Shown: positions 4,746 through 30,074, counted from the first letter of the stretch. The stretch is DNA of 55,303 nt from Candidatus Methanophaga sp. AG-394-G06 (GCA_009903405.1 PRCZ01000004.1:1-55303); one strand, 5' to 3'. The notes: a model not told the origin generated them from the sequence alone. Numbers and translations are program-made.

Positions 4746-4800
4746 CAAACTTTTCTAAACAATAAAGAGTATAAAAATGAGGAACATTTATGTATATAAC

Positions 4801-4858
4801 AGATCACAGATCACCCATTACCGATCACGCATTACCCATTACACATCACGCATTACCC
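4801..4858. repeat. H-type heptamer array (ATCACGC/ATTACCC units), C-rich strand on +
   Basis: Sequence is agatcacagatcacccattaccgatcacgcattacccattacacatcacgcattaccc, with 7-nt periodicity. Confidence 0.8.
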
Positions 4859-4875
4859 AAAAGAACGAACTTTAC

Positions 4876-5554: not shown

Positions 5555-5797
5555 ATGAATGAATTGGCGATAACTGTTAGGGTTAGAGGAGCTACTGCAA
5601 GGATGTTAGAGGAACTTGTGGAAAAGGGATATTATTCTACAAAAGCGGAGGCACTCCGTGCTGGGATACTTCATCTCGCGGAGGAGTATGGTATGATAGG
5701 TTCTCCTATATACTACCGAAGAATGTTGAAGTCAGAAATCGGGCGGCAAATAAAGCATGAAGAGATAGAGAAAGTGTTAGAGGAGATAGAAGAGTGA
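5555..5797 (+). CDS. vapB: RHH-type VapB-like antitoxin
   Basis: ITVRVRGATARMLEELVEKGYYSTKAEALRAGI is a ribbon-helix-helix pattern. Overlaps the downstream PIN gene by 4 nt. Confidence 0.55.
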   Translation: MNELAITVRVRGATARMLEELVEKGYYSTKAEALRAGILHLAEEYGMIGSPIYYRRMLKSEIGRQIKHEEIEKVLEEIEE

Positions 5798-6225
5798 ATT
5801 TACGTGCATATCTGGATACAAACGTATTCGTTTACGGGTTACTTGAAGATTGTAACTCTTCTATTATATTGTCAACGGCGGAAGCAGGAGCTCTGGAGGT
5901 AGTAGTTTCAGAATTGGAGGTAGAGGAAGTTCAAACGGTTTTTAAACGGCTCGCCGGAAGGGAGGCAGGATTTTATGCCATGAGATATGTCGAGACATTG
6001 GCTGTAAAGATAGTGAAGAGAGAGGAGATGAAGAGCGAGATAACGGAAAATAGAGGTAAGATAAAGGATAAAGATGTGGAAAATGTAGCAGCGGTAAGGC
6101 ATGAACATTTAGAATTCCTGGTCGCTTATGACAGGGACTACGAAGGTGTGCCGGAATACATCACACCAAAGGATTTTATTGAAAGATTTGGAATAGGAAT
6201 AAGAGAGTATGATATAGAATACTGA
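5794..6225 (+). CDS. vapC: PIN-domain toxin
   Basis: YLDTNVFVY, SELEVEEV and VAYDRDY are acidic PIN motifs. Confidence 0.75.
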   Translation: MNLRAYLDTNVFVYGLLEDCNSSIILSTAEAGALEVVVSELEVEEVQTVFKRLAGREAGFYAMRYVETLAVKIVKREEMKSEITENRGKIKDKDVENVAAVRHEHLEFLVAYDRDYEGVPEYITPKDFIERFGIGIREYDIEY

Positions 6226-6250
6226 GAGCTCATAAATACACATAGCAATG

Positions 6251-6539
6251 ATAAGAGGCGAAAGGCTAATGGGTAAAGGGTAACGGGTGATGAGTAACGA
6301 GTAAAGAGTGATGGGTAATGAGTATGTCACGGATTACGGAGAGTTGGGGTGAAGAGTAACGGGGGTTAAGCAAAATGAACGAAACGCAACGATTATGCAT
6401 TGCAGATTACATATTACCGATTACGGATCACGCATCACCGATCACCATTATAATAGAAATATCAAGTATGCTTTCAAAATTGATTTCGGCAAGGTCGAAA
6501 GCCTTTTGCCCTTAGCCATTTGTCTTTCACCATTTCCCC
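6251..6539. repeat. decayed four-helix-bundle gene cassette (arms plus the last ~15 codons of the ORF)
   Basis: G-rich P+H arrays span 6251-6325 and a C-rich H array spans 6405-6448. 6452-6500 nearly matches 21048-21092 (the EISSMLSKLISARSK tail of the gene at 20736-21107). A P array follows at 6501-6539. Confidence 0.75.
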
Positions 6540-6548
6540 AAGAATAAA

Positions 6549-7018
6549 ATGAAAGTCGCCATACCAAAGAACAGAAAGGAAATTAAGCACTTCCCAAACG
6601 ACCTTGCCCTTGTAATCTTCCTCACCCTTTTATGCATACCTTTTGTCCTAATCTCATCCCACCATTAAACGAATCACCGGTAAGAATCATTTTGGGTCTT
6701 CCCCTAGTGCTCTTCCTACCAGGCTACTCTTTAATCGCCGCATTATTCCCAAGAAAAGACGATTTAGATGGGATCGAACGAGTTGCACTCAGCTTTGGAC
6801 TAAGCATTGCAATATCACCATTATTAGGCTTGGCATTGAACTACACACCGTTTGGAATACGATTGACGCCGATACTTATCGTTCTATCAGTATTCACGAT
6901 TGCACTCGCCATCGGCGCGTGGGTAAGAAGAAACAGGATTCCAGAGGAGGATCGATTTGTGGTTGATTTTGGAGTATTATTCAAAAGTATAAAGGAATCA
7001 GCTAATCAATTAAAATAA
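6549..7018 (+). pseudogene. DUF1616 N-terminal membrane module, frameshifted and lacking the C-domain
   Basis: MKVAIPKNRKEIKHFPNDLALVIFLTLLCIPFVLI is followed by a 5-nt insertion (aatct, near 6650) relative to the 2890 copy. Frame 6632-7018 continues PPLNESPVRIILGLP...LNYTPFGI. Confidence 0.6.
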
Positions 7019-7677: not shown

Positions 7678-7971
7678 ATGGATGCTGACAAGATAGAAAG
7701 AGAATTGGAAGAGAAGAAAGTTTACATAAAGAGGGTTTTTCATATTAGTGAAGTAGGAATATTTGGTTCATTTATCAGAGGAGAACAAACCGCAAGCAGT
7801 GATATAGACGTTCTTGTTGAATTTGAAAAGGGACACAAGGATTTTTTTAATTATATGAGATTAAAACATTACCTTGAAGAGCTTCTTGGGAGAAAAGTTG
7901 ACCTGGTCATAAAAAATGCAGTTAAACCAAGATTGAGGGAAAGGATTTTTAGCGAGGTTGAATATGTCTGA
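7678..7971 (+). CDS. mntA: MNT-type nucleotidyltransferase (antitoxin of HEPN-MNT pairs)
   Basis: GIFGSFIRGEQTASSDIDVLVEF is the GSxxRGx..SDxD motif. 97 aa. Confidence 0.8.
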   Translation: MDADKIERELEEKKVYIKRVFHISEVGIFGSFIRGEQTASSDIDVLVEFEKGHKDFFNYMRLKHYLEELLGRKVDLVIKNAVKPRLRERIFSEVEYV

Positions 7972-8136: not shown

Positions 8137-8290
8137 AACTCATTACATACCTCACAATATTATATATCACACATCACCGATCACGCATTACGCATCACCA
8201 ATCACGCATCACGCATTACCGATCACGCATTACTGATTACCCATTACGTATACCCATCACCGATTACCGATCACGCATTACCCATCACCC
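8137..8290. repeat. H-type heptamer array (about 22 units)
   Basis: Sequence includes catcaccgatcacgcattacgcatcaccaatcacgcatcacgcattaccgatcacgcattactgattacccattacg. This is the longest array in the window. Confidence 0.85.
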
Positions 8291-8301
8291 AAAAGAACGA
8301 A

Positions 8302-10080: not shown

Positions 10081-11322
10081 ATGGGAACTGAGAAGATGAG
10101 CGTAAATGTGGTGCTCGTAGGGCATGTGGATCATGGTAAGTCCACATTGATAGGAAGATTGCTTTACGACAGTGAGAGCATAAAGGATGAACGGGTGGAA
10201 GAGATCCAGAAATTAGCAGAAGAATATAAGCGCAAATTCGAATTCGCTTATTTTCTCGACTCTTTTGAGGATGAACTGAAAGAAGAGCGGACAATAGACA
10301 CGGTAAGTTTGATGTTTAAAGGCAAGAAGAATTTTTACACGATAACTGACGTGCCAGGGCATAAGGAGTTTATAAAGAACATGCTAACAGGCGCGTCACA
10401 TGCGGATGTAGCGGTTTTGGTGGTATCTGCAGAAGAAGGCGTGCAAGAGCAGACGAGAAGGCATATGTTCCTGCTCAAGATGCTTGGCATCAAACAGGTC
10501 TTTGTAGTTGTAAATAAGATGGATGCTGTGGAGTATAATAAAGAGCGGTTTGAAGAAGAAAAGGAACAAATAAGCAAGCTTTTGGATTCCTTTGACTACG
10601 CGACAGGAGAAATGCTCTTTATTCCCGTGTCCGCAATGGAAGGCGATAACATTTACAAGTATTCCGAGCATATGAAATGGTATGACGGTCCAACGTTGAT
10701 AGACGCATTGGATGGCGTGAGACTGGAAGGAAAAGAGAAACCATTGAGGTTTGCTGTTCAAGATATATATAAGGTAGAGGATGAAGAGACAATCGTAGGG
10801 CGCGTGGAATCGGGAATTCTAAGAAGAGCAGACAATGTAGTTTTCGAACCTTCGGGCGTCAAGGCGAAAGTAGAGAAGATAAATGTCTTTGATGGCGAAT
10901 TGGCAGAAGCTAAGGCAGGGGATAGTATTGGTATTATTATAAACGGAGGAGTGGTAAAAAGAGGTGATGTTCTTGGACTTCTGGAGAAACCGCCAAAACC
11001 TACTAATGCGTTTTTAGGCGAGGCGGTTTTGCTGGATAAGAACTTGAAAAAAGGGGAAGTAGTGGAAATAAGGTGTGGAACTGCAAAAGTAAGTGGTGAG
11101 ATAAAAGAGATAAGAGAAAAGATAGATTCAGAGACAGGAGCAGTTTTAGAGAGTAATCCAGAAGAGATAAATGAGCATGATGCGGCAACTATTGTCTTTG
11201 CGACCGAGCCGCTGGTGGTAGAGGAATTCGCGGAGATTCCGGAACTCGGACGGTTTGTTCTCGTAAAAGCTAACAGGAATATAGGGGCTGGAGTGGTCTT
11301 AAATGCAGATGTTAAAATGTAA
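10081..11322 (+). CDS. cysN: sulfate adenylyltransferase subunit 1 (GTPase), no APS-kinase domain
   Basis: EF-Tu-like motifs GHVDHGKST, DVPGH and NKMD. Adjacent to cysD. 413 aa. Confidence 0.85.
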   Translation: MGTEKMSVNVVLVGHVDHGKSTLIGRLLYDSESIKDERVEEIQKLAEEYKRKFEFAYFLDSFEDELKEERTIDTVSLMFKGKKNFYTITDVPGHKEFIKNMLTGASHADVAVLVVSAEEGVQEQTRRHMFLLKMLGIKQVFVVVNKMDAVEYNKERFEEEKEQISKLLDSFDYATGEMLFIPVSAMEGDNIYKYSEHMKWYDGPTLIDALDGVRLEGKEKPLRFAVQDIYKVEDEETIVGRVESGILRRADNVVFEPSGVKAKVEKINVFDGELAEAKAGDSIGIIINGGVVKRGDVLGLLEKPPKPTNAFLGEAVLLDKNLKKGEVVEIRCGTAKVSGEIKEIREKIDSETGAVLESNPEEINEHDAATIVFATEPLVVEEFAEIPELGRFVLVKANRNIGAGVVLNADVKM

Positions 11323-11355
11323 AAATCAAAATGGCAAGTCAAAAATAAAAAAGAA
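11311..11355. repeat. A-rich heptamer-periodic element overlapping the cysN stop
   Basis: gttaaaatgtaaaaatcaaaatggcaagtcaaaaataaaaaag. The last cysN codons (VKM*) are encoded by the element. Confidence 0.7.
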
Positions 11356-11414
11356 TGCGTTACCAAAGAAATTAAAAGGGAAGGGGTTTATATTTTATCT
11401 ACAAGTTTTGGACA

Positions 11415-12227
11415 TTGGGAGCAATGAAAGCAGTACAAAGAGATAAGGGAACATTTCTCGTATTAGGCATAGATGCGGCGACATGGGCTGTTGTGAACGC
11501 GAATTTGAGCAAGTTAAGTAATTTTGAGCGGTTGATTAAGCTTGGCAAAAGCAAAGTAATCACGCTGACGGAGAAGCCTATATCTGCATCTATCTGGTGC
11601 GGTATGTTCTCAGGTAAGCTTTTCACGGAGCACAAACATGAGAGTTATGTTGTTAATGGCGATATTGTAAAGCGAGCGGATATAAATGTGGATTTTATAT
11701 GGGATATTCTACATGCGAGAGGAAAGAATGTAAAAGCGTTGAACGTACCTTTTGTTGTGCCGCCTTATTCATTCAACGTAGATTTTAAGCCCATAGGTTT
11801 TGGATTGCCCACGAATGAAAAGGAATGGGGAGAGGAGCTGGAACGAGTTACGGAGAAGACGAAAGAACTTTTAGTGGTTGAGAAGCCGGATTTGCTCATC
11901 GCTGTTTATACGTTTTTGGATAGGATCCAGCACTTCCACTGGGGTGAGGATTACGTAGTCGAGTGGTATGAGCGAATGGATGAGAAGGTTGGAGAACTGA
12001 TATTCGATACAGGTTTCTTAGATGGGAACAACAAGTTGATTGTAATTTCAGATCATGGATTCTGTTCTTTTGGCGAAGCAAAAGTGCAGACGCTGCCGGA
12101 ATACACGAAAGATGGGCAATTGAAGGGTGATCATCATGAAGATGCTTTTTTGGTAACGGTGAACGTGGATTATGAGGTAGAGAGACCGCAGGATGTGTTT
12201 TTTGCGATTGAAGAAGAGATTGTATGA
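11415..12227 (+). CDS. small alkaline-phosphatase-superfamily (NPP-like) protein
   Basis: LVLGIDAATW and VISDHGF are metal-ligand motifs. PISASIW occupies the nucleophile position (Ser instead of Thr). 270 aa with no tail motif. Confidence 0.55.
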   Translation: MGAMKAVQRDKGTFLVLGIDAATWAVVNANLSKLSNFERLIKLGKSKVITLTEKPISASIWCGMFSGKLFTEHKHESYVVNGDIVKRADINVDFIWDILHARGKNVKALNVPFVVPPYSFNVDFKPIGFGLPTNEKEWGEELERVTEKTKELLVVEKPDLLIAVYTFLDRIQHFHWGEDYVVEWYERMDEKVGELIFDTGFLDGNNKLIVISDHGFCSFGEAKVQTLPEYTKDGQLKGDHHEDAFLVTVNVDYEVERPQDVFFAIEEEIV

Positions 12228-12331
12228 AGGATATTGATGAAGAGCGCTGTTTAAGAACTCAGCATAGATGTTCGGTTAAGGGAACTCCCAGTAAATAGTT
12301 TATCCAAAAAGTTTTGATAATTATCATACAA

Positions 12332-12479
12332 AGACACAGATTTCACAGATTTACACAGATGCTACTCTAAAGTCCCGAAAAGATTATTAAGCTTTTATGG
12401 GTTCATAAAATCAAAATTGAATTTATAAATCAATTATTGCACTACTTTAAATCTGTGTTAATCAGCGTTAATCTGTGTC
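12332..12479. repeat. T-type decamer inverted-repeat element
   Basis: Left arm is agacacagatttcacagatttacacagat and right arm is aaatctgtgttaatcagcgttaatctgtgtc, separated by an ~88-nt spacer. It lies between convergent genes. Confidence 0.75.
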
Positions 12480-12515
12480 AATAAAATACTTTTTTGCAAG
12501 AATAGCATACATAGC

Positions 12516-12959
12516 TTATTCAACAACCGCTATTACTTTGCATGGTGCATTCTTCTTCAAATCGTCTACAATTTTAGCCCGTTTCTCTACCAATATCGTA
12601 TCTACATTATATCTCTGTACCACTTCGACAACCGATTCAACAAAGGGTCCTTTAACTCTTATTGTCTCAAAGGATATGCCACGTTTTTCCGCTTCCTTTT
12701 CCAATCTGGCCAATCGCTTCGAGATGACCTCTTCCCTATCTGCGTTTATATCTACCTCTAATCGCTCTACAACCTTTTCACCAAGAAAACCCAGATCATG
12801 CGTTAACCGGGCAACCTTTTCGGCAATATTCATATCTCGCACGCTTAATATGATCAGATCGGCTTTATCTCTCGCCGCAAGATCCAGTGCCTGCATTGCC
12901 ATTTTTTTGTGGATGGAAGTAGCAGAAAATGCTACTAATATTTTAGCTTTCGTCTCCAT
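12516..12959 (-). CDS. universal stress protein (UspA family)
   Basis: 147 aa. KILVAFSATS, DLIILSV and the C-terminal VDTILVEKR...APCKVIAV fit the USP alpha/beta fold. Confidence 0.7.
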   Translation of the reverse strand: METKAKILVAFSATSIHKKMAMQALDLAARDKADLIILSVRDMNIAEKVARLTHDLGFLGEKVVERLEVDINADREEVISKRLARLEKEAEKRGISFETIRVKGPFVESVVEVVQRYNVDTILVEKRAKIVDDLKKNAPCKVIAVVE

Positions 12960-12993
12960 GATTTATCCTTATATTAAATTAAATTAAATTATA

Positions 12994-14382
12994 TTAAATT
13001 ATGTTGATACCAATTAAAGGCCAATATGTAAATACCATAATAATAAAAACTAACCATGCAGTTAAATTTAAAATGAATGCAGGCAGCAGGATTTGACGTA
13101 TCGTATAATAGCCAGCCGAATATGCAATTGCATTTGGCGGCGTGCCCATAGGCAGGATAAATGCAAGTCCTGATGGTATGGCTATCAGAAACACCATAAT
13201 TATAGGGCTTATGCCTACTATATCACCTATACTGAATCCGATGGGTATGAGAATCGCAACACATGCAGAATTACTGATTGCCTCTGTAAGGAATATAGCG
13301 ATAAGTGGTAGTATCAGAACTACAATGACCGAGGTCAACGTGATGTTATCCAAAACGGTCATAGCAGCCCATTCTGCCGCTCCTGTCGATGCCAGTGCCG
13401 ATCCGATGGCGATTGCCCCACCGTACATTAGGATTATTCCCCAGTTGACATTGGATTCCACATCTCGCCATTTCAGCACATTGAGCATGAAGAGCAAAAC
13501 AGCAGAAAGAATCGCTATTACTGCTAATCCTATTGTATTACCAATAAATATCCATGAACAGACGGTCAGCAGCATAACACACCCCGCCTTCTTTTCTGCC
13601 CTCGTTATCTTACCTACGGCTACTAGTTCAGATCTGAGTACTTCTTTTGCCGGTTTGATTGTGTGTATATCCATTTTCAAAAAAAGATTTAATATGACAA
13701 AAGCAATTGCAAGCATTACAAATACAATTGGCATCGCTGCCACCATCCACTCAAAGAAAGTTATTTCAAGACCTGTGCTTTCTTTTAATAATCCGATAGC
13801 AAGTGGGTTCCTTGCACCGCCAAGCAGCGTTCCCACACCGCCTATCACGGCACCCCAGGCCAGTGATAAAAAGAGAAGTGCACCGTAATTGCTGTTTAAC
13901 TTTTCTAAATCTAAACTGTTCGCAATCGCAGCAACCACCGGAAACATCATGGCTGCAACGGCGTGTTCCGGCATTATAAAGGATAAAAATGCGCACGTTA
14001 GCATTATGCCAGCCAACAATTTACGGGGTGTGCTGTCAAATTTATTGAGCATAAGCAAAGCAATTCTTTTGCTTAAGCCTGTCTCAATCATTGCAGCGGC
14101 AAGGATGAAAGCACCAAGGATAAAGAATACCGCTGAGTTTCCAAAAAGAGCAAAAGCCTCTTTACTCGGCATCACGCCTAGTAGAGGAAGAAGAGCGATT
14201 ACAAACAGACCCGTCACAGAAAGGGGCAGCGCGTTTGTTATCCACAGAATAATAGCACATGCAAAGATCCCTATTGCATTTTTCGCTTCCGTAGACAGTC
14301 CTGTCGGTGCAGGCGATACCACAAAAACTGCAAGTACGAGTAATGAAAAAGCTATGATGATATATTGTCCTTTTCTATTCAT
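12994..14382 (-). CDS. DASS/SLC13-family anion permease (candidate sulfate transporter)
   Basis: 462 aa and polytopic, with hairpin motifs of the SNxx type (TEAISNSACVAIL). The gene context is cysDN. Confidence 0.7.
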   Translation of the reverse strand: MNRKGQYIIIAFSLLVLAVFVVSPAPTGLSTEAKNAIGIFACAIILWITNALPLSVTGLFVIALLPLLGVMPSKEAFALFGNSAVFFILGAFILAAAMIETGLSKRIALLMLNKFDSTPRKLLAGIMLTCAFLSFIMPEHAVAAMMFPVVAAIANSLDLEKLNSNYGALLFLSLAWGAVIGGVGTLLGGARNPLAIGLLKESTGLEITFFEWMVAAMPIVFVMLAIAFVILNLFLKMDIHTIKPAKEVLRSELVAVGKITRAEKKAGCVMLLTVCSWIFIGNTIGLAVIAILSAVLLFMLNVLKWRDVESNVNWGIILMYGGAIAIGSALASTGAAEWAAMTVLDNITLTSVIVVLILPLIAIFLTEAISNSACVAILIPIGFSIGDIVGISPIIMVFLIAIPSGLAFILPMGTPPNAIAYSAGYYTIRQILLPAFILNLTAWLVFIIMVFTYWPLIGINII

Positions 14383-14425: not shown

Positions 14426-14516
14426 AAAAAAACTTTTTTGCAAGCAAAAACCTTTACTAAAAAATGCTTACGCTTCTTTTTTGCAAGCAAAAACCTTTAC
14501 TAAAAAAAGCTTACGC
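14426..14516. repeat. element C, two tandem 43-44-nt units
   Basis: ttttttgcaagcaaaaacctttactaaaaaatgcttacgc occurs twice. Related to 944-1008. Confidence 0.8.
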
Positions 14517-14577
14517 TATAGCAAAAGGAACAGGTATAGTTTTCATCGGTACGATCATTGGCACGCTTTTGAAAAAA
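14517..14577 (+). pseudogene. N-terminal stub of a Wzx-type flippase
   Basis: Reads AKGTGIVFIGTIIGTLLKKF, compared with MAKGTGIVFIGSLAGVFLAF at 23566. It directly follows element C. Confidence 0.55.
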
Positions 14578-16764: not shown

Positions 16765-18636
16765 GAGGCTGTCCAACAATTACCAAACAACCAACAGATA
16801 ATATTTCCTGCACAGATATAAAAAGCAGTTTTTCTTCTCAACACCCCTTCACTTTATAGCCATATCTAACACGAATTGCAAAAGCGCATCCTAAAAATTA
16901 ATGAATTTCGATTCCAAGCGAAAAGAAACCGAAAAGCTTTTATTGCTGCACGTACAATTATACTTAGCTTATAAAAGCGAGGTGATGACGAGAAATGGCG
17001 ATAAGGGATGATAAAATGGGGCAGTCGTGGCTATTGCCCCCTGATATTAGTGAACTCATACCGGTAGACCACATCTGCTACCTGGTTATTGCAATCGTGA
17101 ATGGCATAGATGTTAGTGAAATAGAGGAGAAGTACAGGTTCAAACCGGGCAATTCGGCGTATCCGCGGCGGATGCTGCTCCGACTGCTGGTGCAGGCGGC
17201 AATCGATGGCGTATGGTCCTCCAGAAAGATTGATAAGTTGGCGCTCGAGAACGTGGTCTACATGTACCTGGCAGGGAACGAGAAGCCCGACTTTAGAACG
17301 CTATGTAAATTCCGATCGGAGAACAAAGAGCTGATCGAGGCTACCTTCGAGAAAACCGTCACCTTTGCTAAAGCATTGGGAATAGCGAAGTTGGGTCACC
17401 TCTCGACCGATGGTACCAAGATGAAAGCCAATGCCTCAAACAGCTACACGCTGAGTAAGGAGGAGATAAAGGCGATAAGGGAGATAATAGAGCGCGGAAT
17501 CGCAATAGACGAAGAAGAGGATAAACTCTACGGGGATAAGCGGGGTGACGAGCTGCCGCCCGAACTCAATACGCAGCAGAAGATTCGTGAGAAGCTAAAA
17601 GAAATTGAACAAGCCTCTAACAGGAAATTGAGGAGTGCCGCAAAGAATATTATCGAGCAGCATGCGCTTGGTGATGAGCTGCAGAAGGAGCAGATTATTG
17701 AAAAGCTTGATAAGGCTGAAGAAGAGCTAAATACGAGTGGACAGAGATCTGTAAGTATAACTGACCCTGAAGCAAGATTTATGAAGAACAAGAAGGAGCG
17801 AATCGAATTGTCATACAACCCGCAAATCACCGTAGATCACGATTCGGGGATAATCGTTGCCAATGACGTTACACAGGATTGCACTGACCACGCGCAGTTA
17901 GAGCCGCAGGTGAATAGTACGCTGGAAAATGTGGGGGAACTGCCGGAAGGTGCAAAACTGAGCTTTGATAACGGATATTTCAGTGGTGCTAACCTGCGAT
18001 ACCTGGAGACGAACGGGTTAGACGCCTATATTCCAGACCGCAAGCAGGCGGGGGAGATGAAGGGAAATAAGCCGAAGCTGAGCCCATTCTCGAAGGATTC
18101 GTTCGATTATGACGAAGAAAAAGACCAGTTTTTATGCCCCAATGGAGGGATACTCAGCAGAAAGGGCGAATATGAGTATAACGGTAAGCAGGTGTACGCC
18201 TATTATGGTGCGAACTGTGGTGAATGCCCGTTCCGGGCGGAATGCGCGGGTGAAGGCAAAACAAGGGTGATTACCAGTGACGGCTACGAGGGTGAACGCC
18301 GTAGGATGACAGCTAAAATGCGGTCGGAGGCGGGTAAAGAGGCGTACAAAAAGCGTAAGGAGACTGTTGAATGGCCTTTCGGTAACATCAAGCAGAATCT
18401 GAAGTTCCGTGAATTCCTGACACGTGGAATAGAGAAGGTTAGGGTAGAGCATAATCTGGTATGCACAGCGCACAATTTGAAGGTAATATGGGGTAAGTTG
18501 GAGAGGAATGTGCCGATCATCAGTACGATTCGGACGTTAGTAGCTAATTCGGTATCTAAAGTAGGGAGTTTTTTACGTGTTCACGCAATAATTAACTTTA
18601 AGTGTCAGTGTTGATAATTAATTGGGGGACAGCCTC
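16765..18636 (+). mobile_element. IS element (IS1182/IS5-like), 1872 bp
   Basis: Terminal inverted repeats are GAGGCTGTCC/GGACAGCCTC. A 4-bp direct duplication AAAC lies at 16761-16764 and 18637-18640. Removing the IS restores the rmlC frame. Confidence 0.85.
16995..18614 (+). CDS. DDE transposase (IS1182/IS5 family)
   Basis: N-terminal InsH-like region (LLPPDISELIPVDHICY, RRMLLRLLV), then STDGTKMKANAS and FDNGYFS DDE-type motifs. Confidence 0.8.
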   Translation: MAIRDDKMGQSWLLPPDISELIPVDHICYLVIAIVNGIDVSEIEEKYRFKPGNSAYPRRMLLRLLVQAAIDGVWSSRKIDKLALENVVYMYLAGNEKPDFRTLCKFRSENKELIEATFEKTVTFAKALGIAKLGHLSTDGTKMKANASNSYTLSKEEIKAIREIIERGIAIDEEEDKLYGDKRGDELPPELNTQQKIREKLKEIEQASNRKLRSAAKNIIEQHALGDELQKEQIIEKLDKAEEELNTSGQRSVSITDPEARFMKNKKERIELSYNPQITVDHDSGIIVANDVTQDCTDHAQLEPQVNSTLENVGELPEGAKLSFDNGYFSGANLRYLETNGLDAYIPDRKQAGEMKGNKPKLSPFSKDSFDYDEEKDQFLCPNGGILSRKGEYEYNGKQVYAYYGANCGECPFRAECAGEGKTRVITSDGYEGERRRMTAKMRSEAGKEAYKKRKETVEWPFGNIKQNLKFREFLTRGIEKVRVEHNLVCTAHNLKVIWGKLERNVPIISTIRTLVANSVSKVGSFLRVHAIINFKCQC

Positions 18637-19144
18637 AAACATATAAAAAAGAAGATTTTGAAGAAAACGCAGGAATAAAAGGTGAATTCATTCAGGACAA
18701 CCACTCAAAATCAGAGTATGGTGTTTTAAGAGGCTTGCATTTTCAAAGAGAACCTTATGCTCAGGCTAAAATAGTTCGATGCATTAGAGGTGCGATTTAT
18801 GATGTTGCAGTTGATTTAAGAAAGAACTCACCAACCTTTGGTAACTATGCTGGTGTTAATCTTTCAGAAGACAACAAGTATCAGCTTTACATTCCCGGAG
18901 GTTGTGCTCATGGATTTTTAGTATTAAGTGATGCCGCTGAAGTCATTTATAAAGTTGACAACGTTTACGCTCCAGATTATGAGAGCGGATTAATCTGGAA
19001 CGATCCCGATGTAAATATTAGATGGCCGATTGATAATCCAATTCTCTCACCAAAAGACCGGCAGTTGCCTAGGTTGAGTGTGTTGGAGGAGCGGGGAGAG
19101 GTGTATTACAATGATGTTTTTATATAGGTATTACAAAATTTAAT

Positions 19145-19378
19145 ATGATGAGTGGTATGGAGGTCATAAGTTTTCGGATACCGAAGGAGTTGAAGGAGAG
19201 CGTAAATGAATTGGAAATCAACTGGAGCGAAGAAGTGAGAAGGTTCATAGAGGATAAGGTGAAGGAATACAAGAGGAAGAGAGCCTTGGAAGAGATAGAT
19301 ACAATGCTCAAAAATGTACCCCCGCCTGAGAAAGGAACAGCATCGAGGTATGTGAGGGAAGATCGTGATAGTCATTGA
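19145..19378 (+). CDS. vapB: VapB-like antitoxin
   Basis: ISFRIPKELKESVNEL...RKRALEEIDTML. Overlaps the downstream PIN gene by 14 nt. Confidence 0.6.
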   Translation: MMSGMEVISFRIPKELKESVNELEINWSEEVRRFIEDKVKEYKRKRALEEIDTMLKNVPPPEKGTASRYVREDRDSH

Positions 19379-19769
19379 TGCATCCACGATCGCGAAGTAT
19401 GTCCTGAAGGAAGAGCACTGGGAGCAGGTGAGGGACTATCTCACTGCTGAACCACGCTCACTGGACTTAGCGCTGGCTGAAGTTTCGAATGCTATCTGGA
19501 AGCATCAGGTGATCTACCGTAAGATATCGAGCAGTGACGCCACGTTACTCTTCGAAGCGCTGCAGAAATTAGGCGCGGATGTACTGATCCTTGAATCCTT
19601 TGCGGGGTATCTCCGCGGTGCTACTGAGATCGCGGTGAAGGAGAAGCTCACCATATACGATGCCCTTTACATCGTGCAAGCGCAGAGATATGGTCACTTC
19701 GTGACGAGTGACGACTTCCAGCGCAAGATCGCGGTGAAGCTGGGGCTCGAGGTAGTGTTTATCGAGTAA
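19365..19769 (+). CDS. vapC: PIN-domain toxin
   Basis: VIDASTIAKYVL, LAEVSNAIWK, IYDALYIVQA and FVTSDD. Confidence 0.8.
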   Translation: MIVIDASTIAKYVLKEEHWEQVRDYLTAEPRSLDLALAEVSNAIWKHQVIYRKISSSDATLLFEALQKLGADVLILESFAGYLRGATEIAVKEKLTIYDALYIVQAQRYGHFVTSDDFQRKIAVKLGLEVVFIE

Positions 19770-19797
19770 GTAGTTAGTTAAGGAGGCGGTGATAAGC

Positions 19798-20667
19798 GTG
19801 AAGGTAGCGATACTCGGTGCAAATGGTCAATTAGGCAGTGATCTGGTAGAAACATTTGGCGAGGATGCGATTCCTTTAACTAGCCGAGATTTGGATGTTA
19901 CCGATCCAGAAAGAGTGAAGATTTTGAATGTGCTTAAGCCGGATGTCATAATTAACACTGCCGCTTACGTTAGAGTTGACGATGCGGAAGTAGAAGTGGA
20001 AAAAGCATTTCAAGTCAATACGATTGGAGCTTTGAACGTTGCAAAAGTGTGTAATGAAATAGATGCAGTCAATGTTTATATCAGCACGGATTATGTTTTC
20101 GATGGCGCTAAAGGAGAACCTTATGAGGAGGGAGATGTTCCAAACCCGATAAACGTTTATGGGCTGAGTAAATACACAGGGGAGATTTTTACACGGAATT
20201 ATTCCAAGAAATATTATATAATACGTGTTGCCAGTTTGTATGGCAAAGCAGGTGCAAGAGGAAAAGGAGGTAACTTTGTGGATTTCATGATTCAGAGAGC
20301 TAAAAAAAGGGAAGGGATTAAGGTTGTTGATGACGTGTTTATGAGTCCCACATGTACTAAAGATGTTTCAATAATGCTTAAGAGGTTCTTAGATTTAGGT
20401 TTAGGTTTAGGTTTAGGTATTAAACCTGCGTTTGGGGTTTACCACATGGTTAACGAAGGTTATTGTAACTGGTATGAATTTACGAGAGAGATTTTCACTG
20501 TCTTAGGTTGGGATGCGCAAAATCAAATAATTCCTATACGGTCGAGTGAATTAAAGAGGTTGGCGAGAAGACCTATCTTTTCTGCGTTGAGGAATACGAA
20601 ACTTGACGATCTTGGATTGAAGATGAGAACTTGGAAGGATGCGTTGAGGGAATATCTGATGGAATAG
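19798..20667 (+). CDS. rmlD: dTDP-4-dehydrorhamnose reductase
   Basis: KVAILGANGQLG, STDYVFDG and YGLSKYTGE. The GTG start lies 11 nt after aggagg. The ORF track starts at 19789. Confidence 0.85.
   Translation: MKVAILGANGQLGSDLVETFGEDAIPLTSRDLDVTDPERVKILNVLKPDVIINTAAYVRVDDAEVEVEKAFQVNTIGALNVAKVCNEIDAVNVYISTDYVFDGAKGEPYEEGDVPNPINVYGLSKYTGEIFTRNYSKKYYIIRVASLYGKAGARGKGGNFVDFMIQRAKKREGIKVVDDVFMSPTCTKDVSIMLKRFLDLGLGLGLGIKPAFGVYHMVNEGYCNWYEFTREIFTVLGWDAQNQIIPIRSSELKRLARRPIFSALRNTKLDDLGLKMRTWKDALREYLME
20395..20418 (+). repeat. (TTAGGT)x4 in-frame microsatellite inside rmlD
   Basis: Encodes LGLGLGLG within LDLGLGLGLGIKP. Confidence 0.9.
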
Positions 20668-20682
20668 AAGAGGTGGAGATAA

Positions 20683-20733
20683 GTGGAGGGAAGAGGGCTA
20701 AAGGCGAGAGGCAAAGGGGACAAGGCGAAAGAC
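20683..20733. repeat. P-type heptamer array, G-rich strand (left arm of the four-helix-bundle cassette)
   Basis: ggctaaaggcgagaggcaaaggggacaaggcgaaagac is heptamer-phased and imperfectly complementary to 21093-21125. Confidence 0.7.
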
Positions 20734-20735
20734 TA

Positions 20736-21107
20736 ATGAGTAAAGGAGGTTTTAAAGAACTTAGGGTTTGGCAGAAGGGTAAAGACCTTGCTGTTTACAT
20801 CTATCGAATAACAAACACTGGCGATTTTGCAAAGGATTATGGTTTAAGAGATCAAATCAGGCGTGCGGTAGTTTCTATTCCGAGTAACATTGCAGAAGGC
20901 GATGAGAGAGAAACTGATAAAGAGGCTGTTCGGTACTTTTACATTGCTAAAGGGTCATCTGCTGAAGTGTTGACACAGGCAACTATTGCCTTTGAAATAG
21001 GCTATATCCCAAAAGAGACATTTTTTGAGATAGAGAAAGGGTGTATAGAAATATCAAGTATGCTTTCAAAATTGATTTCGGCACGGTCGAAGACCTTTTG
21101 CCCTTAG
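20736..21107 (+). CDS. four-helix-bundle protein (23S rRNA intervening-sequence protein family, Avd-like)
   Basis: 123 aa. Contains FKELRVWQKGKDL, IPSNIAEG and YIAKGSSAEV. The start is taken at the ATG after the left arm rather than at 20631. Confidence 0.8.
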   Translation: MSKGGFKELRVWQKGKDLAVYIYRITNTGDFAKDYGLRDQIRRAVVSIPSNIAEGDERETDKEAVRYFYIAKGSSAEVLTQATIAFEIGYIPKETFFEIEKGCIEISSMLSKLISARSKTFCP

Positions 21108-21236
21108 CCATTTGCCTTTTAGCCAAACCAGAAGGAAAAGCGGCAGGTAAATTGATTTCGGCACGCTTGAAAACCTTTAACCCTTTGCCATTCGCCATTT
21201 GCCCATGATCACCCATTACGCATCACCCATTCCCGA
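21090..21236. repeat. right arm: P array, duplicated gene tail, second P array, H array
   Basis: A P array (accttttgcccttagccatttgccttttagcc) is followed at 21149-21178 by a repeat of the last codons (aaattgatttcggcacg). Then come ccctttgccattcgccatttgccc and atgatcacccattacgcatcacccattcccgat. Confidence 0.75.
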
Positions 21237-21396
21237 TAGTTTTATATACCCATTGTTATATATAGCTGTATTCAATATATAATACAGAGAGGGATGCAAC
21301 CACCAAATGCATGAACTAGTAGTAAATAGAAGGAAAAGAAAAGAAAACCGCATAGAACAGCGACAATCACCGCGGAAGAACGGCAAATAAAAATAA

Positions 21397-22386
<990 letters not shown>

Positions 22387-22389
22387 AAC

Positions 22390-22720
22390 ATCCCTCTCTT
22401 TTTTATCTTGAATACCCTTGAATATAGTTGGACGTATTTGCAGAAAGAAAATTTTCGATCCGGAATGTGCTGAATCAATGCTTTAATGAACTCTCGCACC
22501 TCCATTGTCACGAAATTGCATCCCTGTTGCGATTGTCCTCGAATATGTGTCTAACCGTGAGAGGGGCATCAATAGTAAGACCGAGGAGAAGTATAAGGAG
22601 GTATGTTCCGGGTGTGAATATGTCTATATGCATTAGTTAGAGGCATGGTTGGATGGTTACATTAATTGACGCGGAGCGAACGCGGGGTTATAGTTTATTG
22701 AGCCTCTGGAAGCATGTCTA
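22390..22720 (-). pseudogene. possible transposase remnant (Y2/IS91-like C-terminal region)
   Basis: Reverse frames read TVRHIFEDNRNRDAIS, then (frameshift) TMEVREFIKALIQHIPDRKFS...YVQLYSR. The resemblance is weak. Confidence 0.3.
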
Positions 22721-23058
22721 AACATCCTTTAATAGCAAATTCAGTCATTAATTCTGCCCGTTTTCCCCATAATTTTTGTTATAATCATCTAAAGCACATT
22801 TAAGCCCATTTTATCAGATAGAGAAAAAGAGGCACATAAAACACTCGATATGTTTAAAGAAGCGCTTAAGAAAGCCTGAACGATGGTAATTAAATTTGTT
22901 CCTCGCTTTAAGATGCCAAAAGTATCGCCCCATCGGACCTTATACTACCTTCAGCAGTAGCCTAATTAAAGCCGTAGACAAATTTTTAGTGCAAAAGAGG
23001 AAGAATTAATAGAATAAAGGTGAATTAGGGCATTGTGGTAGGCGATTCCAGAGGCTCT
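22701..23058. mobile_element. possible MITE-like element (358 bp)
   Basis: A 12-bp terminal inverted repeat gagcctctggaa/ttccagaggctc. The right end abuts the 5'-truncated DUF4258 pseudogene. No convincing ORF. Confidence 0.3.
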
Positions 23059-23062
23059 TTTA

Positions 23063-23438
23063 TATCCCCTGAAAAAGTTGTTGATGGATACTATGGACGC
23101 AAGATGGCACAGGGTTTATTAAGCGAAAATTTAATATTAAGAGTAGTATATGAATGAAGAAAAAGAGAGGGAACTTATGGTAGTTACCGTATATCCGGGC
23201 GAAAGGAGGAGATATGAATGAAGGCAAGGTATGACTGACAGGGAAGGGGACACATTGGATATGCTATTAGAGGATAAGCAGATACACTATGCGGAAGAGC
23301 ATGGACAGATAATAGTGAACTACGATGAAAGGGGGAAAATAGTTGAGATAGAGATACTAAATGCCAGTAAATTACTCGGCGGGGTTTTTAACTGAGATCC
23401 TCAAAGCTCAGGAAAGGAGGATAGTTGAAATTATATGA
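23063..23438 (+). pseudogene. decayed copy of the DUF4258-DUF2283 pair
   Basis: Collinear with 2230-2599. The 5' end is missing, with stops or frameshifts (YE*, YD*QGRGH) and a disrupted C-terminus. Confidence 0.75.
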
Positions 23439-23532
23439 CGTGATGGGTGACGAGTGATGGATATTGGGTATTGGATATTGAATAACCCATCACCGATCAC
23501 GCATTACCAATTTCCGATCACGTATTACCGAT
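23439..23532. repeat. empty H-type hairpin (G-rich arm, short loop, C-rich arm)
   Basis: cgtgatgggtgacgagtgatggatattgggtattgg faces cccatcaccgatcacgcattaccaatttccgatcacgtattaccg. It ends 3 nt before the flippase ATG. Confidence 0.75.
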
Positions 23533-23535
23533 ACC

Positions 23536-25095
23536 ATGTCCGAAAACGTAAACCAATCGCTCAAAAAAATGGCAAAAGGCACTGGTATAGTTTTTATCGG
23601 TTCTTTAGCAGGCGTATTTCTTGCTTTTATTGGCAGGCTTATGATTGCCAGATACGGGACTGTGAGTGAATACGGTGTCTTTTCCCTGGCATTAGTAATA
23701 CTGAACATCTGTGTTGTTATAAGTACCTTGGGGCTACAAAACGGAGTCACTCGCAGCATTGCCTATGCAAGAGGAAAAAATGAGAATGAAAAAATTCAGG
23801 GGTTTATTTCCGCTTCTATCTGGCTTAGTCTTGCAGCGAGCTTCATACTATGTTTTATCCTTTTCTTCGCATCGGAGACTATTGCAGTAAACATTTTCCA
23901 TGAGCCTGCTCTTATCGCTCCATTAAAGATATTCTCCATAGCCATACCGTTTTTCACCTTAAGCAGTGTCATTGTCTCCATATTCCTAGGATTTGGTCGT
24001 GTCCAAGCAAAGGTTTACTTCCAGGACATCCTGAGAAATGTACTTTTCCCGCTACTCTTGTTAGCTGTTATTCTCCTAAGTCTATCTTTCACCAGCGTCT
24101 TTTATGCTTACACAGTATCCTTAGCCGTTCCGTGCCTTCTTCTTGTAATCTATACCGTTAAATACCTACCCTCGTCAATAAAATTTACTGCTAAACAGAC
24201 TAATAATGCTAATCCCGTAGCCAAGGAACTTTTATTTTTTTCGCTCCCTCTACTAGGTGTGGCTATGCTGGGAATGATAATCGCTTGGACGGACACTTTA
24301 ATGCTCGGAAGTTTTAAAAGTACAGCGGAAGTGGGCATATATAATGCTGCACATCCTTTAGCCAATTTTATTTCCTCACCTTTAAGTGCTTTATTGGTGA
24401 TCTACATGCCGATTACTTCAGGTCTATATGCTCAGGGACTGATGCCAGAAATGAGAAGAAACTTCGCTATTTTGACCAAGTGGCTCTGCTCACTTACCTT
24501 GCCGTTATTTCTCATCCTATTTCTGTTTTCCGAAACGGTATTAAACTTCCTCTTCGGCGCCAGCTACATTTTTGCTGCAAATGCTCTTAGAATCTTGTCT
24601 TTGGGGTATTTTGTCAATAATTTCGTGGGACCTAACGGCGCTACTCTAACTGCTATAGGTAAAGTTCGATTTCTAATGTGGGCCACTTTAGCCACTGCCG
24701 TTCTTAATATCGGGTTGAATATTGCTCTAATTCCGCCTTTAGGCATTGTAGGTGCTGCCATCGCTTCTGTGGTTGCCATAACCTTTATCAATCTGATAAG
24801 ATGCTGGAAACTCTACTCGCTTACGGAAGCACAGCCACTGAGTAAAAATCTAATAAAGCCAACTTTAGTTTCTCTGACGTTGATATTTCTTATTTACTTT
24901 GTTTCCATAGAGTTTATTACCGTTACCCTATGGATGCTCCCTCTGCTCTTCATACTCTACTATGTCATCTATGGCTCGGCCATCTTGCTGACAAAGAGCT
25001 TTGACCAAGAAGACATAACAATGCTGCTGGCGATAGAAAAACGGACTGGCATAAATGCTGCTCCAATAAAGAAGTTTTTGAACAAGTTTCTATAA
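23536..25095 (+). CDS. Wzx-type polysaccharide flippase (MOP superfamily)
   Basis: 519 aa with about 14 TM segments. The N-terminal KGTGIVFIGSLAG is typical of polysaccharide biosynthesis proteins. Confidence 0.75.
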   Translation: MSENVNQSLKKMAKGTGIVFIGSLAGVFLAFIGRLMIARYGTVSEYGVFSLALVILNICVVISTLGLQNGVTRSIAYARGKNENEKIQGFISASIWLSLAASFILCFILFFASETIAVNIFHEPALIAPLKIFSIAIPFFTLSSVIVSIFLGFGRVQAKVYFQDILRNVLFPLLLLAVILLSLSFTSVFYAYTVSLAVPCLLLVIYTVKYLPSSIKFTAKQTNNANPVAKELLFFSLPLLGVAMLGMIIAWTDTLMLGSFKSTAEVGIYNAAHPLANFISSPLSALLVIYMPITSGLYAQGLMPEMRRNFAILTKWLCSLTLPLFLILFLFSETVLNFLFGASYIFAANALRILSLGYFVNNFVGPNGATLTAIGKVRFLMWATLATAVLNIGLNIALIPPLGIVGAAIASVVAITFINLIRCWKLYSLTEAQPLSKNLIKPTLVSLTLIFLIYFVSIEFITVTLWMLPLLFILYYVIYGSAILLTKSFDQEDITMLLAIEKRTGINAAPIKKFLNKFL

Positions 25096-27800: not shown

Positions 27801-30074
27801 TTATACTTTTTCCGATTTGCTTATCCCTTTCACAAAAAAAACATCCAGTTCGCCATTTGAGTATAACATATCCACCGTTGAATCATCCTCTACTCTCTCA
27901 AAGTCGCTATTGTTAAACCTGCCAATCTCTGGCCATACTTCCAGATATAGTGCTTTATTCCACTTAGATATCACCATATAGCGATCCTGAGCATATAATT
28001 CACCCAATGAGGTATGATTAGCATAGTCAAAGTGATCTGGAATACTTGAGGGAAAAAAAGTTGAAAAGTCCTCTCTTTCTCGGGATTGAGAATATCCATA
28101 TATAGCATCAGAAAACCTATGTATGTGACCCATTCCTATATATAAGTCTGGTACATTTTTGTAGTTAAAAAACCAATGCACCCCCGTTAACTCCATATTC
28201 GTAATCTGGGAACTTGATTGCTTCAAATAAGGGGAAGGATATAGGTTAAATATACCAATTGTTGACGAGACTACCAAGATAGCTACGATGATAGCAATAC
28301 TTATGGTTCGATGACGATTTTTAAATAACTCATAAAAAGCAAATCCCGCCAATAAAGGTGTTACTAACATCATAAAATTTAAAAAAACGAGTCTTTGTGC
28401 AGACTGCGTCAATGAGGACGCCATCGCCAGTAAAGAGAATAGAATCATCAACCCCGTGATTATAAACCATACCGATATTCTAAACAGATTTTTTATTTTC
28501 TTATTCTGATAAAAGAATTTAAAGATAATCAATACAGCAATCAACGAAAGTATTGTATATATGATTTGATGTCCAAAAAATTTAATGGTTAATTCAAATA
28601 GTTCAGATTTTGTAGTCGCTACTTTTGAAACTCTGCTCATAATCAGATCGGAACTAGAGCCGATAACCGTACCATATAACCAACTAGCCATACTGCGAAC
28701 TCTCTGACCAAATGCAAGATATGCGGAAAACCACATGAAAAAAGTTATAACAGGAATTAGAATTGGATTTATTGAAATTTGCGTTATTGCGTGAGAAAAT
28801 TTGATTTCTGATCTTTTAGATGTATATATTATCTTCGAGATTTCCATCATTATCAGAAACAGGATTAAAATGAGCACCGTTAGCGGATGAAAGAATGGAT
28901 ATACCATTAGTAGTATAATATATACCAAGCTAAATCCTACTGATGGTTTTTCCGAAATTTTGAAATAAAGGTAAAATACCAAAGGGAGCATTAACGTGGA
29001 ATGAGCTGCTGGGAATACTTCTACATGATAATAAGTAAAAAATAAAGTGCAACTGGCTGCTGCAGATAATAATATGTATTCCCGTTTATCAAATATCACT
29101 GTGGCTAATAAGTATATAGAAGCCATATATAAAATTGTAAATAAAGCAGGGACAAAGCCCATTACTATTATAGGCGGTATACCGCAAACCCCTGTTATTT
29201 CTGCAATGAATATGTGTGTAATTGGATAGAAATCATTAATATTTATGTAGCCACTTGAAAGAATATCTTTTACAGATCCCAGATGTGATAAATGGTCACC
29301 ACGACCAAATGTAGCATAACCTCTGATGACGGAGAAAAGAGTAACAATAAGATTACTTAAGATTAATATTAAAAACCCAATTAACCAAAAATTATCTCTT
29401 TCTTTGTCTTTACTAAACGCTTGGTGAGTGATGATCGCAATTCCACAGGCAATACTACCGATCAAAAATAGCCATACAAAAGGAGATACACCCTTGTATA
29501 TAGATAATTCGTAACCACTTGCAGGAGGCGTTCTGGCGGTTATCGTTAAAGCTAATGTAATAAAAATAAAAGCGATAATCGCTATGATTTTGATGATTCT
29601 ATTCTGATTTTCGGATTTAATAAATTCACTCTTAGACCTTCCTAACTCACGCCATCCAGAAATACTCATCTGCGAAAGTGGAGCAAACACCTCTTTTTTG
29701 AAAATGATTCTCCTTCTATACGTTGCCGCTGCTGATATTAGAAGTATGAACAAGAACAGCGAAAACGTAACTGGATAAAGCATTATCCCAAAAGGCGTAT
29801 AGTTTAGCATGAGTCCTATCAATGATGTAACAGCTATGCTGAGTCCCAAACTCAAAACTAATCTCTCAACAATATCCAAATCTTTTCTTCTGGGAAATAG
29901 AGCACAAATTAACACATAGCCTGGGAAGAACAGAATAAAGGGTAAGCTAAGTATGATGCGTGCTGGCGAGTTTGGGAAGAACGCTATTACGGAAACAAGC
30001 AAAGCTGATAGAATATCTACTAAGATTATGTCTCGCTCGGTTTTAAAGCGTATATCTCGCAGTATCGTAGTCAT
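27801..30074 (-). CDS. DUF1616 module fused to a large polytopic membrane domain (possible GT-C or polymerase-like)
   Basis: The first ~130 aa match DUF1616 (FFPGYVLICALFPRRKDLDIVERL..LNYTPFGI). About 14 further TM helices and a ~130-aa soluble C-terminus follow. No WWDYG motif is present. Confidence 0.55.
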   Translation of the reverse strand: MTTILRDIRFKTERDIILVDILSALLVSVIAFFPNSPARIILSLPFILFFPGYVLICALFPRRKDLDIVERLVLSLGLSIAVTSLIGLMLNYTPFGIMLYPVTFSLFLFILLISAAATYRRRIIFKKEVFAPLSQMSISGWRELGRSKSEFIKSENQNRIIKIIAIIAFIFITLALTITARTPPASGYELSIYKGVSPFVWLFLIGSIACGIAIITHQAFSKDKERDNFWLIGFLILILSNLIVTLFSVIRGYATFGRGDHLSHLGSVKDILSSGYININDFYPITHIFIAEITGVCGIPPIIVMGFVPALFTILYMASIYLLATVIFDKREYILLSAAASCTLFFTYYHVEVFPAAHSTLMLPLVFYLYFKISEKPSVGFSLVYIILLMVYPFFHPLTVLILILFLIMMEISKIIYTSKRSEIKFSHAITQISINPILIPVITFFMWFSAYLAFGQRVRSMASWLYGTVIGSSSDLIMSRVSKVATTKSELFELTIKFFGHQIIYTILSLIAVLIIFKFFYQNKKIKNLFRISVWFIITGLMILFSLLAMASSLTQSAQRLVFLNFMMLVTPLLAGFAFYELFKNRHRTISIAIIVAILVVSSTIGIFNLYPSPYLKQSSSQITNMELTGVHWFFNYKNVPDLYIGMGHIHRFSDAIYGYSQSREREDFSTFFPSSIPDHFDYANHTSLGELYAQDRYMVISKWNKALYLEVWPEIGRFNNSDFERVEDDSTVDMLYSNGELDVFFVKGISKSEKV

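Follow-up and report, generated by a model that had tools for sequence, protein, structure and literature searches.

What does a gene of the family named for the intervening sequences (IVSs) of 23S rRNA do between two glycan genes of an archaeon, and why is it enclosed by inverted arrays of 7-nt units? The locus lies in a stretch of 55,303 nucleotides from Candidatus Methanophaga sp. AG-394-G06, referred to here as the window, in which a 123-codon gene sits between rmlD and gmd (Table 1). The reading that we favour, at a probability of roughly 60%, is that the locus represents a single copy of an ancient, widespread element of ~430 nt, in which some five purine-rich heptamers precede a PF05635 gene and some five heptamers complementary to them follow it, with arms that would pair into an RNA stem and a protein that, as a pentamer, would read the arrays.

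The gene and the arrays that enclose it

The assignment of the gene to the four-helix-bundle family of 23S rRNA IVSs, made in an earlier note from the sequence alone, is borne out by profile searches. The product matches Pfam PF05635 (23S_rRNA_IVP; E 1.2e-35, 122.3 bits against a cut-off of 33.8), which is the sole family matched in the Pfam search, as well as NCBIfam TIGR02436 (E 2.3e-34, 117.9 bits against a cut-off of 24) and NF008912 (129.4 bits against a cut-off of 124). The family is a large one, with 17,082 clusters at 50% identity matching PF05635 at E <= 1e-3. As predicted by AlphaFold2 (pLDDT 93.8), the window protein shares the four-helix-bundle fold of solved family members, with Foldseek TM scores of 0.85-0.92 against the pentameric XCC0516 (2GSC) and 0.77-0.90 against 2RLD. 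The solved structures 2GSC, 2RLD and 4DWL have five chains each, and by likeness to 2GSC, 2RLD and Avd the window protein may also be a homopentamer. PADLOC defence-system models gave no match.

Because the fold is common to Avd, the accessory protein of diversity-generating retroelements (DGRs), it could be asked whether the gene is itself an Avd gene. The model does resemble Avd (TM ~0.78), but at 12% identity, and the product gives no match to bAvd (PF22296) even at E = 10. A scan of 38 window ORFs turned up no reverse transcriptase, so that the search suggested earlier for excluding a DGR comes out against one, and no template/variable repeat pair occurs within 20600-21300, where the sole direct repeat longer than 21 nt is the duplicated gene tail described below. 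The neighbours of the homologues in other genomes are housekeeping genes. An Avd gene of a DGR is thus extremely unlikely here.

The arms lie remarkably close to the gene's own ends. The left arm stops 5 nt before the ATG and is preceded by a looser purine-rich lead-in from 20683, with phased GG traceable back to 20661. Right arm 1 overlaps the last codons, the stop codon TAG falling inside its second unit, and where this arm ends, so does the unit that recurs as copies in other genomes. The heptamer units are of the GGCTAAR and GGGTRAT types. The description of the gene as bracketed by inverted heptamer arrays is therefore confirmed, with coordinates that were right to ~13 nt. Also confirmed are the duplicated gene tail, the second P array and the H array that were said to follow the gene; they occupy 21149-21237, and 21149-21205 is 82% identical to 21069-21125. 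Tail and arrays together are the 3' remains of a second cassette at this position. Mimicry of SD/anti-SD pairing by the H-type units (GATCACC) was considered and set aside as not general, other lineages having unrelated units.

Table 1. Coordinates of the cassette, its neighbours and related arrays in the window
Feature	Coordinates	Strand	Description
rmlD	19789-20667	+	upstream neighbour
Left arm	20696-20730	+	five purine-rich heptamers GGCTAAA GGCGAGA GGCAAAG GGGACAA GGCGAAA, read from sequence
Four-helix-bundle gene	20736-21107	+	123 codons
Right arm 1	21094-21124	+	CCTTTTG CCCTTAG CCATTTG CCTTTTA GCC, read from sequence
3' remnant of second cassette	21149-21204	+	duplicated gene tail 21149-21173 and second C-type array
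Second C-type array	21174-21204	+	CCTTTAA CCCTTTG CCATTCG CCATTTG CCC
H-type pyrimidine-rich array	21208-21237	+	ATCACCC ATTACGC ATCACCC ATTCCCG AT
gmd	21412-22386	+	downstream neighbour
Decayed cassette	6247-6543	+	G-type arrays 6247-6328, H-type C array 6390-6453, last 20 codons 6453-6512, C-type array 6502-6543
ORF-less hairpin	23438-23532	+	G-type then C-type heptamers, directly upstream of wzx start codon
Solo C-type array	2771-2805	+	CCCTTAG-type, 3' of DUF4258/DUF2283 gene pair
Solo H-type C array	4799-4859	+	
Long H-type C array	8154-8296	+	~18 units, 3' of nucleotidyltransferase-type toxin-antitoxin gene

In the window copy the arms are degenerate. The two inverted repeats, one of 31 nt (20695-20725 with 21174-21204) and one of 26 nt (20700-20725 with 21094-21119), are each 77% complementary, and it is this degeneracy that might lead one to suspect a pattern due to chance or to low complexity. 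That suspicion is already refuted by the controls. Series of five GG at 7-nt spacing number 5 in the window and 0 in 100 dinucleotide-preserving shuffles (0.00 expected). The best ungapped Watson-Crick pairing of the arms joins 20695-20718 to 21181-21204, within the second C-type array, with 20 of 24 pairs and a score of 14; all 300 composition-preserving shuffles stay below this (maximum 13). If G-U pairs are allowed, 20684-20711 pairs with 21094-21121 at a score of 20.5, which 1 of 300 shuffles reached. The pattern moreover recurs in independent loci, as set out in the next section, and in finished genomes.

The window cassette has terminal inverted repeats able to form a stem around the insert. 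When the sense RNA of 20670-21240 was folded and compared with shuffles, as the earlier note had advised, it gave -166 kcal/mol (z = -2.87), with the outer stem formed by the arrays; the antisense gave -135 kcal/mol (z = -1.45). Rfam matched no family in 20000-24000.

Two further elements pointed out earlier in the window are also real. The supposed fossil copy at 6251-6539 holds a remnant of the gene, its last 20 codons being recovered by tblastn at 95% identity, along with flanking arrays. The hairpin placed at 23439-23532, which contains no ORF, folds moderately better than shuffles (z = -1.77, 15/200). The ORF-less arrays in the window lie just 3' of small toxin-antitoxin-type genes.

Heptamer arms across the family and in 23S rRNA

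In a scan that took one genome per species, more than 525 relatives came up, of which the best 80 were analysed; the counts that follow are on the 75 loci with an intact gene. The best 80 come from Methanophagales (ANME-1) archaea, which are the nearest genomes to the window, and from Brocadiaceae, Nitrospirota, many Desulfobacterota, Geobacter, Aquificota, Sumerlaeota, Aminicenantes, Bacteroidales, Ignavibacteria, Margulisbacteria and cyanobacteria; the bacteria alone represent more than ten phyla. Arrays were detected as phased dinucleotides; a strict identity-based detector of period 7 misses degenerate arrays, including those of the window itself.

At least four phased GG are present within 200 nt upstream of the gene in 67 of the 75 loci and at least four phased CC within 300 nt downstream in 72, against a background of ~0.3 arrays per kb. 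Both arrays occur together in 64 of the 75, and the supposition that inverted flanking arrays are a constant feature of the family has accordingly survived. Among flanks that are periodic, counting plasmid and rRNA loci, a period of 7 fits best upstream in 56 of 58 and downstream in 68 of 72, versus 3 of 178 control pieces. Arrays adjoining the gene most often have five units (24/67 upstream, 34/72 downstream), whereas background arrays fall steadily in number from four units.

Units of many types are found across the lineages (GGCTAAR, GGTGAAR, GGCGCAA, GGTACAA, GGCGATA, GGTTATG, GGTATCG and others), and the two arms of a locus go together. When the downstream unit is reverse-complemented, its similarity to the upstream unit is 0.51 within a locus and 0.39 between loci (permutation p < 1e-4), and the median score of arm pairing is 17.5 within loci versus 9.5 between them (p = 2e-6 for duplex energy). 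Unit similarity also tracks protein identity (Spearman 0.39, Mantel p = 5e-4). Part of this last correlation might come from gene and arms being inherited together.

Relative to its homologues the gene has a pN of ~0.09-0.15, with synonymous sites saturated (pS ~0.75), and the four-helix-bundle protein is under strong purifying selection. Recent horizontal transfer as the source of the 75-85% protein identity seen across phyla is ruled out by the same saturation. Since the arms keep their unit type although synonymous sites are saturated, they are probably under selection too. What selection keeps seems to be unit type, period 7, about five copies and inverted orientation rather than each base pair, because the bias towards G-U is slight and one arm mirrors the unit order of the other only weakly (mean z 0.48). 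Among arm mismatches across the loci, sense-strand G-U number 88 versus 64, with 152 transversions, and the advantage of the sense duplex over the antisense, seen in 44 of 74 loci, is marginal (p = 0.045).

Further arrays in these loci have the same unit type as the cassette (p < 1e-4), and ORF-less pairs of arrays run G-then-C in 27 cases versus 3 for the other order. The G-then-C order is strand-symmetric, in that either transcript begins with the purine-rich arm. It would fit hairpins that descend from cassettes, with the purine-rich arm as a ribosome-binding region. The arrangement of G-rich upstream and C-rich downstream arrays was dropped as evidence of ORF orientation for the reason that it is strand-symmetric, and orientation was judged from the neighbours instead.

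More distant members, at 33-47% identity, are found on cyanobacterial plasmids, and these mostly have inverted heptamer arms as well, with such units as GTAGGGA/TCCCTAC, CAGGTGA/CTGTCAC, GGGTGTA/CTACACC and GGCAGAA/CCTTCTG. One locus (L082) is an exception, its arrays being direct and not inverted. A match on a plasmid of Azospirillum lipoferum sits within a 23S rRNA gene (Rfam LSU, 2529 bits). Its arms, CAGAGGA CGGATGA CAGAGGA CGGAGGA CAGAAAG and five complementary units, form a terminal stem (z = -8.1). A protein search with the Azospirillum ORF returned eight further copies at five independent sites, all within LSU rRNA, most of them in helix 45 and one in helix 25, with three to five heptamers of the TCAGAAG/ACAGAGG type per arm. 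There are then six independent ORF-bearing 23S rRNA IVSs with heptamer arms, and the label "IVS-type" given to the window gene proves apt.

The ORF-bearing IVS of Coxiella has a length of 428-444 nt, similar to the ~430 nt of the window cassette, and a 28-bp terminal stem that is cut by RNase III (PMC4990558). Because heptamer arms, size and terminal stem agree, the classical ORF-bearing IVS and the window cassette are the same kind of object. With the rRNA IVSs (S23p in Leptospira and Coxiella; helices 25 and 45) the cassette has in common its protein family, the terminal inverted repeats around the ORF and, as seen in the six independent copies, three to five phased heptamers per arm. It differs in that it lies not in an rRNA helix but between protein-coding genes of an archaeon, rmlD and gmd, and in that its arms are less perfectly paired.

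The rRNA copies also bear on the idea that the purine-rich arrays are G-quadruplex elements, with i-motifs on the other arm, and not a duplex or a protein site. GG or GGG every 7 nt over at least four units fits quadruplex motifs in many loci. However, the units of rRNA IVSs and of some cyanobacteria (TCAGAAG, CAGGTGA) lack phased G runs and still show period 7 and five units, and quadruplexes would leave the complementarity of the arms unexplained; we consider them a very unlikely basis for the arrays.

Position within operons, movement and decay

The cassette gene begins 68 nt after rmlD and ends 305 nt before gmd. Because the 68-nt spacer is mostly array, it would appear to leave no room for an archaeal promoter of the cassette's own, and the TATA-like TTTATATA at ~21241 probably serves gmd. 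Across the family, the gene shares its strand with the upstream neighbour in 61 of 66 loci and with the downstream one in 59 of 71, and all three genes are co-oriented in 48 of 62; the gaps to the neighbours are typically 20-150 nt. The earlier note had proposed that the cassette inserts between genes of glycan operons. The part of this that stands is insertion inside a transcription unit, in the orientation of the host genes; the restriction to glycan operons does not, as the Pfam-backed operon pairs around cassettes include not only gmd-fcl but also glmU-glmS, guaB-guaA, two thiolases, and lexA with a Y-family polymerase, while plasmid cassettes lie between cas6 and cas4 and still others in rRNA. 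Genes of the PF05635 type between cas genes have been reported before, and the reported cas "association" is probably the same insertion behaviour.

Taken by itself, the position between rmlD and gmd might suggest a host regulator of the rml/gmd glycan genes, with the repeats as its operator sites, and the arrays could indeed be binding sites. But homologues with the same arms are also found within rRNA and in operons unrelated to this one, the cassette occupies another place in a close relative, and in another locus (L091) there is no cassette after rmlD. A dedicated regulator of these genes is highly improbable on this evidence.

Comparison of rmlD-gmd spacers in relatives, which had been put forward as a way of seeing the cassette present or absent, was less productive: a metagenome scan with RmlD returned two loci and no clean empty site, since in L091 a different gene follows rmlD and in L092 rmlD is interrupted. 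Related Methanophagales genomes are more informative on movement. One locus (L001), 96% identical to window 10979-14382, has 20701-21124 at 93% identity in a different place, immediately 5' of its wzx gene, with homology ending at the outer ends of the arrays. A second (L036) has a near-full-length copy where the window has its decayed cassette, the reading frame being broken at 87 codons, and a third (L020) holds one full copy and one internally deleted copy. The unit shared among these genomes is ~425 nt, and homology at other Methanophagales sites spans just 20701-21124, in agreement with the view of the earlier note that arms and gene make a self-contained cassette. Nested or tandem arrays and remnants are present in the window (21149-21237 and 6247-6543) and in four other loci (L002, L004, L010 and L065). 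A scan of viral contigs found no relative.

It may be that the arms act purely at the DNA level, as substrates for recombination or insertion (a hairpin or cruciform, as in integron attC sites, MITEs or REPINs), with homology between arrays and resident hairpins moving or deleting the ORF and the RNA stem being incidental. The nested arrays and remnants, the ORF-less hairpins of the same unit type in the same genomes and the presence of the cassette unit at different sites in close relatives would all fit such a role, as would the weakness of the sense-specific G-U signal and the matching of arms by unit type rather than by base pairs. On the other hand, the ORF is strongly co-oriented with host transcription and tightly packed in operons, and in rRNA IVSs identical arms are known to form RNA stems that RNase III cleaves. 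In addition, the cassette encodes no recombinase, and recombination alone leaves both period 7 and the five-unit mode unexplained. We judge arms that serve DNA alone to be unlikely, though by no means negligible.

A proposed pentamer-reader model and its relation to known systems

In the reading that we prefer, an element with an RNA stem and a pentameric reader, the element would be transcribed within the host RNA and its arms would pair into a stem of 25-35 bp enclosing the ORF. This stem would package the insertion in such a way that the host transcript tolerates it, and in bacteria it would be a substrate for RNase III, as published for rRNA IVSs. The homopentamer would read the five-unit array, one heptamer per subunit and probably as a single strand. 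Such reading could keep the arrays uniform, and it could control formation of the stem, translation of the protein's own gene or spread of the arrays; the relationship between gene and array would then resemble that of REPIN and RAYT. New sites may be reached by recombination with resident arrays or hairpins, which is the simplest route.

For the RNA stem, the support consists of the identical architecture of rRNA IVSs, co-orientation with transcription and the better sense fold of the window copy, and on these indirect grounds formation of the stem is plausible, its processing in this archaeon being hypothetical. Excision by RNase III is established solely for rRNA IVSs. RNase III is not known from most archaea, and excision in the manner of IVSs may therefore have no counterpart in this one.

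As for the protein, it appears to be the sole conserved component able to impose a universal period. Binding of the pentamer to a five-heptamer array is suggested by symmetry and covariation, and a pentamer on five heptamers would explain period 7, the modal length of five and the covariation of protein and unit together. More broadly, PF05635 pentamers in general might be sequence-specific readers of five-unit arrays, and ORF-bearing rRNA IVSs, STRR arrays and intra-operon cassettes might form one self-maintaining class of bacterial and archaeal elements. We put this generalisation forward tentatively, as a possibility that is less likely than not.

Several of the pieces are already known, namely the protein family in IVSs, the terminal inverted repeats of IVSs, the STRR heptamers of cyanobacteria and stray family members in operons. 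In the full-text literature searched on PF05635, IVS proteins and heptamer repeats, no paper connects genes of this family with heptamer arrays. Apparently undescribed are the phased heptamer arms, usually of five units, across the family and their covariation with the protein, and so are the same cassette in mRNA operons and in archaea and the accompanying ORF-less hairpins of the same dialect.

PF05635/TIGR02436 has solved structures and no known function outside the Avd of DGRs, and the arrays provide a concrete candidate ligand. If true, the reader model gives a function to a family of ~17,000 clusters that has had none for 30 years; at that size (clusters at 50% identity), the generalisation matters if it is experimentally upheld. 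The shared design of gene and arms also links rRNA IVSs, STRR repeats and stray "S23p" genes in operons and cas loci, which are usually treated separately. For annotation there is a warning as well: where a gene of this kind stands between cas, glm, gua or rml genes, it is probably a cassette that has inserted there and not a functional partner in the operon.

Four known systems, besides the rRNA IVSs discussed above, invite comparison. The first is Avd, which has the same four-helix-bundle fold and a pentameric barrel, and which binds structured RNA in the DGR ribonucleoprotein. The identity of ~12%, the separate Pfam family and a window with neither a reverse transcriptase nor a nearby template/variable repeat set the cassette protein apart from it.

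The second is the STRR heptanucleotide repeats of heterocystous cyanobacteria, reportedly described by Mazel in 1990 and Vioque in 1997. Their 7-nt units are repeated in tandem between genes and also within the gene of a structured RNA, and the window likewise has tandem arrays of 7-nt period in its non-coding DNA. The cyanobacterial four-helix-bundle genes that were checked are mostly flanked by such arrays. STRR sequences have been described as dispersed repeats, however, and in the literature searched neither PF05635 genes nor inverted pairing are connected with them; the cassettes occur in archaea and in many phyla other than cyanobacteria, and the published STRR units are not those of the window.

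In REPIN-RAYT systems, as in the window, inverted copies of a repeat stand on either side of one gene, and the repeat is also scattered as ORF-less hairpins (here 23438-23532). RAYT is an HUH (Y1) transposase, whereas the four-helix-bundle protein has no recognisable catalytic domain, and the repeats here are tandem heptamer arrays, not single palindromes. Finally, TRAP-type ring proteins have an unrelated fold, and array binding by the cassette protein is putative, but the likeness would lie in the arrangement itself: a symmetric ring in which the number of units equals the number of subunits, which in this element would be five and five.

Gene fragments, toxin-antitoxin-type genes and a second repeat family

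The window contains a dense grouping of small toxin-antitoxin-type genes, encoding DUF4258, DUF2283 (two copies), ParE, PIN and MNT nucleotidyltransferase proteins, and a heptamer array or hairpin follows four of the five sites at a distance of approximately 30-200 nt. The ParE gene is the exception, with its nearest heptamer array (4799) located about 560 nt downstream. A DUF1616 membrane protein is represented by two N-terminal fragments that resemble each other, each preceded by a C-type array of pyrimidine-rich heptamers, as well as by a full-length gene. A second dispersed repeat family consists of the 10-mers ATCTGCGTTA and ACACGGATTT, with the reverse complement AAATCCGTGT. In L001, L020 and L036, three relatives from the Methanophagales, this motif also precedes the cassettes, at a distance of 40-60 nt.

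Features of the window by position
Feature	Position	Strand
Toxin-antitoxin-type gene sites	2133-2599, 3977-4234, 5794-6225, 7678-7971, 23231-23395	
DUF1616 N-terminal fragments	2805-2900, 6543-6660	
10-mer repeat family	12334-12360, 48570-48594, 51343-51438, 52597-52621	
43-nt tandem duplication	14433-14517	
Transposase insertion in rmlC	16995-18614	
rmlC, C-terminal part	18735-19127	
VapB-like ORF and PIN-domain toxin gene	19145-19769	
TTAGGT repeat in rmlD	20389-20418	
DUF1616 gene, full-length	27801-30074	(-)

Insertions and tandem repeats among the rml genes

The rmlC gene is split by insertion of a DDE transposase (DDE_Tnp_1_6 / DUF772). This insertion is absent from L091, a relative that has rmlD with no cassette after it, and window position 16764 abuts 18637 there. 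Between rmlC and rmlD, the window encodes a small VapB-like ORF and a PIN-domain toxin, whereas the corresponding spacer in L091 is shorter and different. Tandem repeats also occur in this region: a 43-nt unit that includes a short palindrome is duplicated (97% match) directly upstream of rmlA, and five copies of the hexamer TTAGGT within rmlD give rise to a Leu-Gly repeat (LGLGLGLG) in the protein.

Extended and atypical arrays at other loci

At six loci (L003, L010, L033, L042, L065 and L073), the arrays adjoining the four-helix-bundle gene are either very long, reaching 29 units, or nested many times over, comprising several G/C array pairs. Their structure suggests that arrays have expanded or that a single site has received insertions more than once. 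Two cyanobacterial plasmids carry atypical cassettes. In a Nostoc edaphicum plasmid (L083), the cassette, with GTAGGGA/TCCCTAC arms, separates nrdB from nrdA and lies on the strand opposite to them, as one of the few antisense insertions. In a Pseudanabaena plasmid (L082, 1330-2000), the gene has cas6 on one side and cas4 on the other, and its long flanking heptamer arrays, AAAAGCT repeated about 15 times upstream and AAAAGCC about 10 times downstream, are in direct orientation, an exception to the inverted arms that are usual among cassettes.
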